Assembly: GCF_051105105.1 (NCBI RefSeq)
Contig: NZ_CP185339.1
DNA length: 64,000 bases
Source: Nannocystis pusilla
GTDB lineage: Bacteria; Myxococcota_A; Polyangia; Nannocystales; Nannocystaceae
Strand: one strand, 5' to 3'
The notes under the pieces are model-generated. The model saw only the letters and a list, made by a program, of their open reading frames with translations, ran no database searches and was not told the DNA's origin. Numbering within the stretch: the first letter of the stretch is position 1; each line of letters opens with the position of its first letter. Both the position numbers and the translations under genes were made by a program. Shown piece after piece: positions 1 through 33,606 of this stretch.

Positions 1-1658
1 AGTCGACGTTGTCGGCGTGTCGTGGATGGTCGCGCACCCCGACGGCGAGTCGGTGCTCGCGCTGGCCGGCGGCGCGAATGGGCGCGTCGTCGTGCGCGTG
101 TGGCCGGCGACCGGGCGCGTGGTCGAGGTGCTGGCGAGCGACCGCTTCGGCGAACACTTGTGTGCCGCCCTCTCGCCCGGCGGAGAGCGGCTGGTGTGGC
201 GCCGCGAGGGCACGCCGGTGGCGCTGTGCTCCGTCGATGCGATGACGGGCGCGCCCCTGGAAGAAGTGGCGCTGCCGCCGGAGATCGCAGGTGCGGGGTG
301 TTTGGCGGTGCGCCCGGACGGGGTGATGTATCTGCGTGGCGACGCGGTCGCGGCGATTCACCCCGGCGGAAAGATCGAGACGCTCGACGACTCGCCGTTC
401 TTCGGCGGCTTCGAGCCGTTCTTCGCCGACGCGCGCGGGCTATTGGGCGAGTCCGGGCAACGTGCCGCGTTCGTCGACGGTGCGATCGAACGCCTGGAGA
501 ACCTGCCCGAATGGGTCCGCGGCGGAACGATCGCGTACGACCGCAGCCGCGTCACCTTCTACGCGTCGCAGGGCGCGGTGCAGGTGTGGGACGTTCGAGG
601 AGCAGCGGGTGCAGTTCACGGCGCATCTGCAATCCGCGACCGGGCAGATGCCAGGCTGGACGGGCCAGGCCGCGGCAGCGAGCGCGACCCACGTCGCGGC
701 CATCGATCACGCGACCGCGGCGGTGCTGATCTGGCACGTCGACGATCCGAAGCGGCAGGTCGCGTCGTTGACCGACTACAGCCCAGGGGCTCAGCGCCTG
801 GCGGTCCGCGACGACGCGCTGACGCTGCAGAGATGCCAACCCGCCAACTCGATGCCGGCGGTGATGACGATCGCGCTAAGCAGCGGCGCGATGAAGCTGC
901 TGGAGCTGGACACCATCCACGACATCGCCGCCACCACGGACGGACAGCGCCTGCTCGTGTTCTACCAGCCCTACCCGCTGGGTTCGTTGAGGATCACCGA
1001 ATTCGACGCCGCCGGCGCGCCGGGCGAGTCGTTCGACGTCCAGAAAGGCGCGGGCGAGCTGGCGCTGGCGCCCGACGGCCGGACCTGGGGCGTCACGTCG
1101 TACAATCGACCCGCTTCGCGCGCGGTCGAGCCGACGACGCAGGCCCAGTGGCGCGCGTTCGGGGCGACGAAGTGGGCCAAGAACCTCAAGCTCAAGGGCT
1201 TCTGGTCGCGGATCGCCCTGTGCGACACAGCGGTGGTGATCGCCGTCGGCAAGGAGCTGGTCGTGGTCGCCCTCGCCAAGAACAAGACGCTGCTGACCCT
1301 GCAGCTTCCGACGATCGCCGTGAGCGTGGCGATCAGCCGCGACGGCGCGCGCGTGGGCGTGATCGGCGACGATCGCCCGCGGATCGTCGACGTGGCCACG
1401 GGGAGGATCGTCGAGCTGGCGCCGGAGCTGCACGGCGAGCCGGACCTCCACCGCTGCCTCTGCTTCGATGACGAGGGGCGCTGGCTGTTCATCGGCCACC
1501 CGGCGGGCCCGATCGTGCAGCACCGGGCGGCGGACGGCGCGACGCTGGCGACGCTGCGCTTCCACACGGATGCGGTCCGGGCGCTGACGTGGGCCGGCGG
1601 GGCGCTGTGGAGCAGCTCGGAGGACGGCACCATCATCCGCTGGGGCGATCTCGGCTGA
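1..1658 (+). CDS. WD40/beta-propeller repeat protein, 5'-truncated by window edge; +1 frameshift near 590-600 (frame of ORF 17.. switches to frame of ORF 336..)
   Basis: The upstream frame reads plausibly up to ...QGAVQVWD. Only the other frame reads plausibly from TFEEQRVQFTAHLQ... to the stop at 1658. The C-terminus has WD-like motifs (HTDAVRALTW...SSSEDGTIIRW). The open frame continues off the window start. Confidence 0.6.
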
Positions 1659-1685
1659 GTCTCCGGGTTTGAACGGGCATGCTCG

Positions 1686-1815
1686 ATGGGACATGCCCGA
1701 AAGGACATTTCGATACAGCATGACTGATGGAGCATGTCCGATGCGTCACGTCCGAGTCACCACATCCGCGCTTCGAGGCGGCCTCTTCTTCTTTCGAGGA
1801 CATGTCCGGCGCGGC
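1686..1815. repeat. intergenic array of 14-bp-periodic GGACATGYCC-core repeat units (convergent gene ends)
   Basis: Direct read: ggacatgcccgaaa/ggacatttcgatac/agcatgactgatgg/agcatgtccgatgc/... then gaggacatgtccgg at about 1797. Confidence 0.7.
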
Positions 1816-30942: not shown

Positions 30943-31111
30943 GGCGACAGCCTAACACGCGGGCTGCACCGATGCTCGCGCGGGCGCGAGCCGGCCGCGC
31001 GGCGCGGGGACGATGTCTCACGACGCCCATGACCCGGTGGACGGGGCACCGCGACACCGCTGCCCCGGTCGCCGCACCCCACACATGGGGCGCGGCGCCG
31101 CGGCCTCGCGC

Positions 31112-33606
31112 TCACGACTTCGCCGGCTCGTTCGCCGCGCCCGGCAGCAGGCGCGCCAGCGGCGAGCCGCGCAGCAGCCGTGCGAGCACCTCGGCCACGC
31201 TCTCGCCGCCCAGGATCGCCAGCGGGGCCATCGACTCCGCCATCTTCTCCGCCAGCGCCCGATCGCCGAACGCCTGCAGCGCGGCGATCAGGTCGGGCGA
31301 GACCGCCCGCGCCTTCTCGACCACCGCCGCGACCTCGGCCTGCAGCTCGCGCAGGCGCTGGTCGAGCTGCTGCTGCTGGACCGTCAGCTCGAGCGTCGCG
31401 GTCGCCTGGCGCCGGCCGAGCTCGGCCCCGTGGATCGCCCCGAGCCGCTCCTGCTCGGCCAGCAGCGCCTGCTGCTGGCGCTCGTGCAGGTCGAGCTTGG
31501 CCGCCAGCTCGGCCAGCTGATAGCGCTGCTGCTGCTCGCCCTCGCGGGTGCGCAGCGCGATCGCCTGCTGCAGCGTCGCCGACTTGGCCTCCGCGACCTG
31601 CTGCGTGACCGCCTCGGCCTGGCGCACCATGTCGAGCCGGCGCTGCTCCGCGGCCAGCGACAGCGTCTGCTGGACCGCGGCGTGCTGCGCCTGGACCAGC
31701 AGCTCGGCGATCGCCTCGTCGCCGATCGTCACCTCGAGCACCTCGAACGTCGTACACCCGCATCCCGTTCTCTTCGAACCGCCGGCCCGGCCGCTTGCCG
31801 TCCTCGCCCGCGACCCCGAGGATCACGTCGCGCAGGATCGCCACCGAGTCGGCGTAGAACTGCTCGATGCCGTGGCGCTTGACCGCCGCGCGCACGAGCG
31901 AGCGCAGGTGGTCGGTCAGGAACTTGACGTAATTCTCGACCTCGAACCACCGGTTCGGGTCGCCCTCGAAGTTGACGCGGTAGCTGAGCTGCAGCTGCAC
32001 GCGCACGAGGTCGCGGGTCTCGACCTCGACCTGGTCCGACACCTTGTTGTTGAGCACCCGCAGGTAGACCGTCTTGAACAGGTTGTGCTCGGTCTTCGGC
32101 GTGCCGGTCGACAGCTCGAGCACCTGCAGCGTCTCGTCGTACTCGAGCAGGTGCGTGTGCGGCCCGGTCACGACCTTGCGCTCGCCGGTCTTCGACACCA
32201 CCAGCACCGCGTAGCCGGTCCACACGTCGATGGCGACCGCGCCGTCGTAGCGGGTGTCGAGCACGATCGTGCGCGGCCCGGTGAAGGTCTGGCTGCGCGT
32301 GAAGTCGTCGCCGGCGAACTCCGACGACGGCGGAGGCGGCGGCGCGGCCGGCCCGCCCGGCGCCGGCGCGGCCTTGGGCGCGGCGGAGGCCCGCGCCGCC
32401 TGGACCGGCACCGAGGCGACCGCCGCGAACTCGGCGGCGATCTGCGGCGCGTTCTGCTGGGCGAGGCGGCGGTTGTAGTCGTAGGCCTCGCGGTTGCCGG
32501 GGAACCACAGCGAGACGGTCTTCGGGTCGAGCACGCGGCGGATGATGAGCTCGATCCGCGGATCGGGCAGGTAGATGGCCGGCCCGCGCTTCAGCGTGAT
32601 GGTGCCCTTGTTGCGGTCGAGCACGTAGCGCGCCTCGCCGGCCGGGATCGCTACCGCGTAGTGCCGCTCCTGATCGCCGTACTTGATGATCGCGTGCTCC
32701 GGCCGCGGCAGATAGATCATCGTGTCCTTGCCGGTGATGAACAGCTCGTCGCCGACCTTGTAGCGGACCCCGTTCTCCTCGTACGGCGCGATGACCTTGA
32801 TGTAGAGGCCGGTGTTCTCGTTGAGCTCGATCGCGCGGAACTTGCGGGCGCCCCGCATCGCCACGAACGTCTCGGTCGGCTGCGGAAACACCACCGCAGG
32901 GCCCTGGATGTAGCGCTTGTTGCCGTTCTCGTCGAGCAGGATGCAGTACTCGAGCCGCTCTAACGTGATCGCCTCGCGCACGTAATTGCCGTTGAACGTC
33001 CGGCACCACCTCGACGCCGGTCGGCGGGATGTAGAACGCGACCTCGGTGCCGCGGATGATCAGCAGCGTGCCCATCGTCAGGTCGGGGGGCCGCTGCACG
33101 TGGACCGCCTCGCCCTCGTCCGCCGCGGCCTCGGGGCGCATGCGCAGCACCGCGTTCTTCCAGTTGGCCTTGGCGCCCTCCTCGTCGTACACGCGCACGA
33201 GCAGGTATTGATTGGAGCGCAGGTGGTGGCCCTGGATCACCCGGACCATCTGCCCCGGCCACAGCGCGAACGAGGCCGGCCCGGGGATGTTGACCTTGCG
33301 GCCGGTGTCGAGCGACGGCAGGTTGTTGAGCGCGCCGGTCCGCGGGTGGCTCTTGTCGGTCGCCGGGTTCTTCAGCACCAGGTACCAGCCCTCGGGCGCG
33401 ATCGACAGCGACTGGATCGCGCCGTCGAGGGGGCGCCGCTCGAACCGCTTGCTGCCGGCGTCGAACACCACGGGCGCGTCGGTGTTGGCGAGGCTCGTCT
33501 TGTGCGGCCCGACGTAGACGTTGATGTTGCCCTTCGTCTCGTCCAGGATGAATGCGAACTCGTTCGGTGCGAGGACAAGGTCTCGTTCACGGCCTCGGTC
33601 GTTCAT
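31112..33606 (-). CDS. major vault protein (MVP) homolog, full architecture (MVP repeats, shoulder, cap-helix), interrupted by two +1 frameshifts (about 32992 and 31745)
   Basis: Three consecutive minus-strand frames, ORF 31729..33648 then 30939..32981 then 31112..31741, read as one protein. N-terminus: [37 protein letters not shown], matching MVP's [20 protein letters not shown]..VGPKT. Later repeat: [24 protein letters not shown]. Shoulder: [35 protein letters not shown], matching MVP's QLAYNWHFEV...[22 protein letters not shown]. The tail is a coiled-coil cap-helix. Confidence 0.8.

Follow-up and report, generated by a model that had tools for sequence, protein, structure and literature searches.

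The reading frames of four genes in the 64-kb window of the Nannocystis sp. UBH4 genome analysed here are broken at five sites, and comparison with related genomes indicates that these breaks are very probably artefacts of some kind. The fuller reading, in which nanopore consensus errors arise at the palindrome GACGTC as a consequence of an m6A-type modification, is probable as a whole. The window, which is the entire stretch of DNA studied, contains exactly five frame breaks inside genes, every one of which is +1 and lies on GACGTTC or its complement GAACGTC. This much had been claimed in a preliminary description of the same DNA, and it is borne out both by a frame model, a codon-usage Viterbi over the window, and by alignments to relatives. 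In the frame model, same-strand frame changes that involve no stop codon fall at 590/591, 31748/31749, 32997/32998 and near 29190; around 5997 the coding signal is lost. The alignments put each extra base in the heptamer, at positions 594, 6001, 29145, 31746 and 32995. The break in the gene for a Thr-rich protein is placed only to a few tens of bases by the sequence alone, while alignment to relatives locates it at the heptamer. Seven other frame changes in the model (15371, 21109, 41100, 58093, 60524, 62934 and 63673) are not frameshifts but ordinary gene junctions, where a stop and a start overlap or two genes share a frame.

The two strands are both represented among the broken sites. In the WD40-repeat gene, GACGTTC occupies 590..596 on the plus strand and the surplus T is 594 or 595. 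The break in the N-terminal part of the kinase gene, at 5997..6003, is GACGTTC on the plus strand and GAACGTC on the coding minus strand, with a surplus T at 6001, and the Thr-rich gene has GAACGTC at 29144..29150 on the plus strand, with a surplus A at 29145. The gene for the major vault protein (MVP) homologue, which lies on the minus strand, is broken first at 32994..33000 and again at 31745..31751, in both cases by GACGTTC on the coding strand with a surplus T (A 32995 and A 31746, respectively, on the plus strand). Sites with the same orientation are clustered, with two T-forms at 0.6-6 kb and three A-forms at 29-33 kb, and no broken sites occur beyond 33 kb; this distribution and the grouping by orientation hint at local strand coverage, although they are not statistically meaningful.

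At all five sites the relatives carry GACGTC, to which the window adds one T (A on the other strand). The comparison genomes are from five to six species and include the PacBio-style assemblies RBIL2, DSM 71, BB15-2 and NCELM. The aligned relatives have GACG-TC at the WD40 site (Na p29 and MIELM), at the kinase site (L083, L081, L082 and L086) and at both MVP sites (all six relatives), while the 1-nt insertion at the Thr-rich site is private to the window in a comparison with five relatives, the ancestral GAG ACG TCG (E T S) containing GACGTC. The true reading is TGG GAC GTC GAG (W D V E) at the WD40 site, TAC GAC GTC GAG (Y D V E) at the MVP site at 31745 and CCG GAC GTC (P D V) at that at 32994. 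The ortholog proteins have corresponding sequences: VQVWDVEEQRV in the WD40 proteins, SPALDVTARA, i.e. ALDVT at the break, in the kinases (P0001-P0003), and VVPDV at the MVP 32994 site in all close Nannocystis relatives; YDV is found in 72 of the 80 MVP homologues and DF in none. Based on the relatives at the five sites, the true target is the palindrome GACGTC, and the heptamer, which the preliminary description took for the motif, is the product of the error. The true sequence proposed there, GAC-TTC (Asp-Phe), gives way to Asp-Val in the MVP (YDV), kinase (ALDVT) and WD40 (WDVEE) orthologs, and its alternative of two missing bases (GACACGTTC) does not hold, as the orthologs have no additional residue at any site. 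Over the approximately 50 kb of the window that are aligned to relatives, there is no further window-specific coding indel whose length is other than a multiple of three.

The heptamer itself is not enriched. Fourteen copies of GACGTTC/GAACGTC are present in the two orientations, rather than the ten or so first counted, against a chance expectation of 9.4 +/- 2.9. Eight of these, at 3240, 32865, 38255, 42586, 52477, 56204, 56941 and 61121, are native copies that have no break and are kept in relatives; an earlier tally had about five unbroken copies and overlooked four of the eight. The copy at 3240 was suspected to be a sixth break near the kinase stop, and it is native, the sequence RDENVTPG...KR* being conserved in relatives. 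The copy at 32865, the third heptamer inside the MVP gene, is likewise conserved. The copy at 43843 is intergenic, in a region kept in none of the relatives fetched. Phosphorothioation (Dnd) at GAAC/GTTC was hinted at earlier as the modification behind the error. GAAC/GTTC is the Dnd consensus in some enterobacteria, and it is embedded in the heptamer. However, the ancestral GACGTC at the five sites does not contain GAAC/GTTC, which is created by the inserted base, and the eight native heptamers, all of which contain it, are error-free. With no dnd genes found in the window either, this suggestion is effectively refuted and hardly any credence can be given to it.

The ancestral count of GACGTC palindromes in the window is 36, slightly below expectation, although the deficit is not significant. 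Five of these have the extra base and 31 are intact, a penetrance of 14%. No extended motif or flanking-base rule was found that divides the five hit sites from the 31 intact ones; for example, ggtgGACGTCgagcag at 60151 is intact while gtggGACGTCgaggag at 590 is hit. A random 1-nt insertion would fall in or beside one of the 36 palindromes with P = 0.0039, so the probability that all five window-specific frame-breaking coding indels fall at GACGTC is about 1e-12, and that of the exact product observed is about 6e-17. Recurrence at this motif is therefore far above chance, which can be excluded as its origin.

Deletion of one base per site yields four uninterrupted genes and restores the length of their orthologs. 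The WD40-repeat gene (2..1658, plus strand), the 5' end of which lies beyond the window, has a continuous frame once base 594 is removed. In the public annotation only a 349-aa C-terminal fragment of it is kept, starting at 609 (WP_434415797.1 / XWX07219.1), and this fragment (P0125) matches the window at 100% identity from 609 onward. The Ser/Thr protein kinase with TPR repeats (3201..6093, minus strand), within which the native heptamer at 3240 lies, is 963 aa long once corrected, as is its N. exedens ortholog. The Thr-rich protein (28767..29340, plus strand) has no Pfam family match; its three SSDxxTYAGPDEEW-like repeats are distributed to either side of the break, and the corrected protein has one frame over all 191 aa, with 94-95% identity to L001 and L012. 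The MVP homologue (31112..33606, minus strand), recognized by the Pfam families MVP_shoulder (4.6e-30) and Vault_3, has a continuous ORF of 830 aa after removal of two bases. Of its codon differences from RBIL2, 42 are synonymous and 7 non-synonymous, spread evenly over three segments (synonymous:non-synonymous 9:1, 21:4 and 12:2), so that the divergence is no less synonymous after the breaks than before them. The further decay expected of genuine pseudogenes is thus not seen, either in the ORFs, which are full and of ortholog length, or in the MVP codon differences. Since the five breaks would be consensus errors, the WD40, kinase, Thr-rich and MVP genes are almost certainly intact in vivo and the breaks absent from the organism, which fits the earlier suggestion made for MVP, kinase and WD40.

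The proteins could also be restored by programmed recoding at the heptamer, through +1 ribosomal frameshifting or transcriptional slippage, a reading with which the shared direction of all five shifts, at a single sequence, would agree. It is contradicted by the variable strand and codon phase (the coding strand carries the motif at three sites, the opposite strand at two) and by the orthologs, which are unshifted at these sites in every relative; recoding can practically be dismissed.

Scaling 5 of 36 GACGTC sites per 64 kb to 12.2 Mb gives roughly 900-1,000 false frameshifts (about 950) in the public UBH4 genome, if the window is typical. Such a number is not credible in a living isolate and therefore counts in favour of an artefact. 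It bears directly on motif-targeted mutagenesis or editing in vivo, an alternative offered in the preliminary description. As developed here, A:T would have been recently duplicated at about one in seven GACGTC and the broken genes would be true, very young pseudogenes. Such insertions could have arisen if an AatII-like enzyme (GACGT^C) cut the DNA of its own host and the repair was error-prone, e.g. after loss or lapse of the methyltransferase, and the T is duplicated at a position that would agree with the AatII cut. However, inspection of the sequence indicates that the 3' overhang, ACGT (4 nt, self-complementary), should be religated without error and that off-register pairing of ACGT yields no duplication of T. 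Real insertions would imply about 950 frameshifts in a culturable isolate, including two in one conserved gene, yet removal of single bases gives full ORFs with synonymous divergence downstream and no secondary decay, and the assembly is from ONT reads only. Mutagenesis in vivo is thus very unlikely. If true, it would be a natural case of restriction causing frameshifts throughout the genome of a living isolate.

Errors of the nanopore consensus are in keeping with the way in which the genome was obtained. UBH4 is represented by a single contig of 12,213,092 bp, obtained from native DNA with ONT R10.4.1; the reads were basecalled with Guppy v6+, assembled with Flye and polished with medaka, with no mention of short-read polishing (PMC12766979). 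The assembly is thus based on native-DNA nanopore reads without reported orthogonal polishing, which, together with the comparative data, supports the motif-linked systematic error that was the first choice earlier. In the mechanism proposed here, an AatII-type methyltransferase in UBH4 would place an N6-methyl group on the adenine of GACGTC in both strands, and the altered current would lead the basecaller to emit an additional A on the strand being read. Only where reads with the miscall locally outnumber the others would the surplus base enter the consensus, and the A:T pair would then be spuriously duplicated, here at 5 of 36 GACGTC, as GAACGTC or GACGTTC according to strand. This mechanism would explain why penetrance is partial, why there are two mirror-image products and why the hit sites of a local cluster share one orientation. 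The product of M.AatII is G(m6A)CGTC, methylated at the adenine of the same palindrome (Clark et al. 2012, PMC3287169). Since this adenine belongs to the base pair that is duplicated here, m6A is the likely cause of the error in UBH4. A m5C methyltransferase for GACGTC also exists, in Natrinema (PMC12160562), so the modification may be of another type.

Consensus errors at methylation motifs are established for ONT (Wick et al. 2019, PMC6591954), and such errors hit only some copies of a motif (PMC12392509). The UBH4 errors resemble those at the Dcm (CCWGG) and Dam (GATC) motifs (PMC6591954, PMC12392509) in that they appear in a nanopore-only consensus of native DNA at one short motif, occur partially, are strain- or taxon-specific and persist through medaka polishing. 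Unlike the Dcm and Dam errors, they are 1-nt insertions that duplicate an A:T pair rather than substitutions, and the methylation of GACGTC is presumed. Most of the methylation-linked ONT errors in the literature are substitutions, A-to-G and G-to-A (PMC12392509, bioRxiv 2026.01.14.699587). In the CycloneSEQ nanopore datasets that one study used, both insertions and substitutions are commoner in native than in amplified DNA, and R10 error profiles are more variable in that comparison (bioRxiv 2026.01.14.699587). No report of GACGTC as an ONT error motif was found in the literature searched. AatII-type Type II restriction-modification (PMC3287169) involves the same 6-bp palindrome; its methylated adenine is in the pair that the miscalls duplicate, and the two mirror-image products would follow from methylation of both strands. 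In contrast to such a system, no methyltransferase/endonuclease pair is seen in the 64-kb window, where inspection of genes and Pfam matches and of ortholog annotations found no DNA methyltransferase, restriction or dnd gene; the sole methyltransferase is a small-molecule O-methyltransferase (42490-43557).

A context bias of the Guppy/medaka models at GACGTC that is independent of modification, such as over-calling of A/T in G/C-rich flanks, would accommodate insertions where methylation errors are reported mostly as substitutions, and would also agree with the lack of a methyltransferase gene in the window, the low penetrance and the absence of an extended motif. Even so, this explanation is rather unlikely. 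If there were a general k-mer bias, one would expect it to have attracted wide notice in high-GC ONT assemblies. The duplicated base coincides exactly with the target adenine of M.AatII, and such insertions are absent from Na p29. They are also absent (0/18 GACGTC) from the sister strain MIELM, which comes from the same laboratory, platform and study as UBH4 and has the same stated pipeline, although this corresponds to P ~0.07 at the UBH4 rate and the differing error profile of MIELM suggests that the run or model may not be comparable. With modification as the preferred cause, the pattern suggests that GACGTC modification is specific to UBH4 and that MIELM may be without it.

The value of these observations is practical, as a warning about the public UBH4 genome, and they hold no new biology on vault proteins, kinases or recoding. 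Truncated or chimeric UBH4 proteins, such as the WD40 fragment WP_434415797.1, are already in RefSeq and UniRef, where they will swell the numbers of pseudogenes and CDSs and skew pan-genome analyses. For repair, a simple rule can be used: where a frame break falls on GACGTTC/GAACGTC and the relatives have GACGTC, one A/T is deleted. As a point of method, motif-linked ONT errors can be insertions and not substitutions alone. False frameshifts and split genes are also caused by the ordinary residual errors of ONT-only assemblies, which in MIELM and Na p29 are indels in homopolymers and short repeats. These differ from the errors in UBH4 in being deletions in (GC)n runs and G/C homopolymers, in many contexts, whereas the coding sequence of UBH4 in the window is free of such deletions and has insertions at GACGTC only.

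The reading frame is broken at five positions: in a WD40-repeat gene (+ strand, 590), a Ser/Thr kinase-TPR gene (− strand, 5997), the gene of a Thr-rich protein (+ strand, 29144) and twice in the gene of the major vault protein, MVP (− strand, 31745 and 32994). In a six-frame codon-usage Viterbi path, same-strand frame changes without a stop codon are confined to 590/591, about 29190, 31748/31749 and 32997/32998; the coding signal is lost over 5935–6304, and the remaining adjacent-frame transitions are normal gene junctions. In three-frame translations every break is a +1 shift. 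Both analyses bear out the preliminary description, which had reported five breaks, all +1 and all on the heptamer GACGTTC or its complement GAACGTC. It had counted about ten heptamers, overlooking unbroken copies at 32865, 56204, 56941 and 61121; the window holds 14, which is no enrichment over the expected 9.4 ± 2.9. Eight of the nine copies away from the breaks are kept as heptamers in relatives, with unbroken frames, and the ninth, at 43843, lies inside a non-conserved intergenic stretch.

The window, with a G+C content of 72–76%, is placed by related-locus and protein searches in Nannocystis (Myxococcota). The closest genomes are those of Nannocystis sp. RBIL2, N. pusilla Na p29, N. exedens DSM 71 and N. 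punicea FL3, with 93–98% nucleotide identity over long stretches. Loci of relatives were aligned around four anchor genes, those of MVP (L001–L005 and L012), the kinase (L081 and L082), the WD40 protein (L083 and L086) and a glycine-rich protein (L084 and L085). All five breaks correspond to the palindrome GACGTC in every aligned relative, to which the window adds a single T (A on the other strand): GACG-TC in the relatives is GACGTTC at 590 and 5997, and G-ACGTC is GAACGTC at 29144, 31745 and 32994. Judged from these alignments, the insertion creates the heptamer and does not target it, contrary to the role first assigned to it. The true codons are Asp-Val in the WD40 gene (orthologs read VQVWDVEEQRV), the kinase (SPALDVTARA) and both MVP sites, and Glu-Thr-Ser in the Thr-rich gene. 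At the second MVP site, 72 of 80 MVP homologues have D-V, six D-L, two D-I and none D-F, and no extra residue is present. Since the orthologs have Asp-Val, never D-F, and no added residue, the earlier reconstructions, GAC-TTC or two missing bases, are incorrect.

Removal of one base per site restores each gene, and none of them shows secondary decay. MVP becomes an uninterrupted protein of 830 aa with Pfam MVP_shoulder and Vault_3 matches; the kinase reaches 963 aa, the exact length of its N. exedens ortholog; the Thr-rich protein, of 191 aa, aligns with its relatives in a single frame; and the WD40 ORF is continuous. A 349-aa WD40 fragment protein filed under Nannocystis pusilla (WP_434415797.1 / XWX07219.1) begins at 609, immediately past the first break, and matches the window with 100% identity. 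Synonymous to non-synonymous codon differences between MVP and its RBIL2 counterpart are 9:1 before the first break, 21:4 between the two and 12:2 after the second.

The extra base is present at five of 36 ancestral GACGTC sites (14%), 31 being intact in the window, and no extended sequence context was found that splits these five from those 31. About 50 kb of the window aligns to at least one relative, most of that to at least two, and, poorly aligned variable regions aside, it contains no further window-specific coding indel of a length not divisible by three. Apart from such variable regions, the other window-specific indels are intergenic homopolymer differences at 8187 (G5 in the window versus G4), 8234 (G4 versus G5), 43566 (an extra base at a G/C-run boundary) and 57782 (C3 versus C2, within the 9 nt that separate the stop at 57776–57778 from the GTG at 57788). 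These could be true differences or leftover homopolymer errors. The probability that five random single-base insertions would all fall in or adjoin GACGTC is about 1e-12, and that all would yield exactly the observed product about 6e-17. The pattern is a real and highly non-random observation.

GACGTC itself is mildly under-represented (31 seen, 36 corrected, versus 41.3 ± 6.9 in dinucleotide shuffles), not significantly so. Miscalled sites make up 5 of 21 GACGTC in the first 33 kb and 0 of 15 in the last 31 kb. In the PacBio assembly of N. bainbridge BB15-2 (L004), the equivalent of 33628–33633, in the upstream MVP UTR, reads GAA-GTC versus GACGTC in all others; here the same palindrome has lost 1 nt in this lineage and carries a substitution as well, probably a real difference.

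The genome of Nannocystis sp. UBH4, the strain to which the window is assigned, is a single-contig assembly of 12,213,092 bp (Pokharel et al. 2025, Table 1; PMC12766979). For all its isolates that study used an ONT MinION R10.4.1 flow cell and ligation, native-barcoding or rapid kits, with basecalling by Guppy v6+, assembly by Flye v2.9.2+ and error correction by medaka v1.11+; its Methods do not mention short-read polishing. Lineage-specific small indels are nearly absent in PacBio-style relatives and abundant in the ONT-style assemblies of Na p29 and Nannocystis sp. MIELM. The five breaks are very probably artefacts, since the assembly is nanopore-only from native DNA, false frameshifts are usual in ONT-style Nannocystis assemblies and the broken genes lack secondary decay. 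Their extreme uniformity, the same base pair doubled in either orientation, is that of a systematic read-out error. Moreover, the window rate, if it holds over 12.2 Mb, gives about 950 frameshifts, with two here in one conserved gene, which is not credible for a culturable isolate. Repair of real breaks at the palindrome would not be expected to duplicate one base pair uniformly; on inspection of the sequence, faithful religation is expected of the self-complementary ACGT overhang of AatII, and pairing out of register does not yield the T duplication. Programmed frameshifting is excluded by the motif lying on either strand, the varied codon phases and the unshifted orthologs. A Dnd or phosphorothioate system at GAAC/GTTC, hinted at earlier, fails because the inserted base itself creates GAAC/GTTC and eight native heptamers containing it are error-free. 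The best explanation of the breaks is that an ONT-only assembly has a systematic error linked to the motif GACGTC. The first interpretation was right in kind and wrong in its motif and reconstructions.

The affected GACGTC is probably a modified AatII-type site, and base modification is a likely cause of the error. The adenine of GACGTC is the base methylated by M.AatII (Clark et al. 2012, PMC3287169); as the site is a palindrome, m6A would occupy position 2 of each strand. Duplication at these positions would give GAACGTC if the error fell on the strand shown and GACGTTC if it fell on the complementary strand. Consensus errors at methylation motifs are a well-known ONT failure mode (PMC6591954) and typically hit only some occurrences of a motif (PMC12392509). 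In one study's CycloneSEQ datasets, insertion and substitution rates were higher in native than in amplified DNA, with substitutions dominating and R10 profiles more variable (bioRxiv 2026.01.14.699587). If only the strand being read gained the extra base, neither orientation would have the backing of more than about half of the reads, and either would win the consensus only at locally skewed strand coverage. This would explain the 14% penetrance, as well as the one orientation shared by the two breaks at 0.6–6 kb and the other by the three at 29–33 kb, a clustering that, with n = 5, is suggestive only. A real rival is a context bias at GACGTC in the basecaller or polisher that does not depend on modification, since no DNA methyltransferase or restriction gene occurs in the 64-kb window, the only stretch searched. 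Strain-specific modification fits the findings in the sister strain MIELM, sequenced in the same study, where GACGTC is intact at 590 and 5997 and insertions occur at 0 of 18 comparable sites (P about 0.07 at the UBH4 rate). Since the MIELM error profile differs, with nine lineage-specific deletions of 1–2 nt over 9.4 kb in (GC)n runs or G/C homopolymers, a strict comparison of the two runs may not hold.

The breaks have no biological novelty; their practical use is as a warning on the UBH4 genome and its derived proteins, with a repair rule for them. The MIELM locus equivalent to 1–12000 (L086, JBMEQO010000002.1) has many split genes, with the kinase reduced to a 293-aa fragment and the epimerase to 49 aa; 14,925 CDS are reported for its 12.7 Mb (PMC12766979), and its protein set is probably badly fragmented. 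Na p29 (L012/L083, JAPNKE010000002.1), the type strain and species representative of the genome collection searched, has 11 lineage-specific small deletions and two insertions in 23 kb, two of these changes in its own MVP (equivalent to 31931 and 31521), and carries split adh_short and epimerase genes.

The Thr-rich protein (28767–29340, + strand), which has no Pfam match, has an N-terminal CxxC...CxxC zinc-ribbon-like segment, a hydrophobic stretch and then three SSD(G/A)xTYAGPDEEW-like repeats with Thr runs between them. Its gene is convergent with a radical SAM gene (29623–30942, − strand), and in N. punicea a paralogous radical SAM gene with a faint SPASM match adjoins a 147-aa gene elsewhere (L084, 15085–16843). 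Full-length MVP homologues (query 31112–33606; loci L001–L080) occur in 191 genome stretches with 55–99% identity over about 820 aa, in Myxococcota and in MAGs labelled Bacteroidota, Chloroflexota (Caldilinea), Riflebacteria/Ozemobacteraceae, Planctomycetota and Sericytochromatia. Directly upstream of MVP in Nannocystis is a conserved 209-aa gene (33712–34338) with no Pfam match. Within 1–12000, the GC skew flips sign, with a cumulative maximum near 8 kb, which could be replication-related or a mere change in gene orientation.
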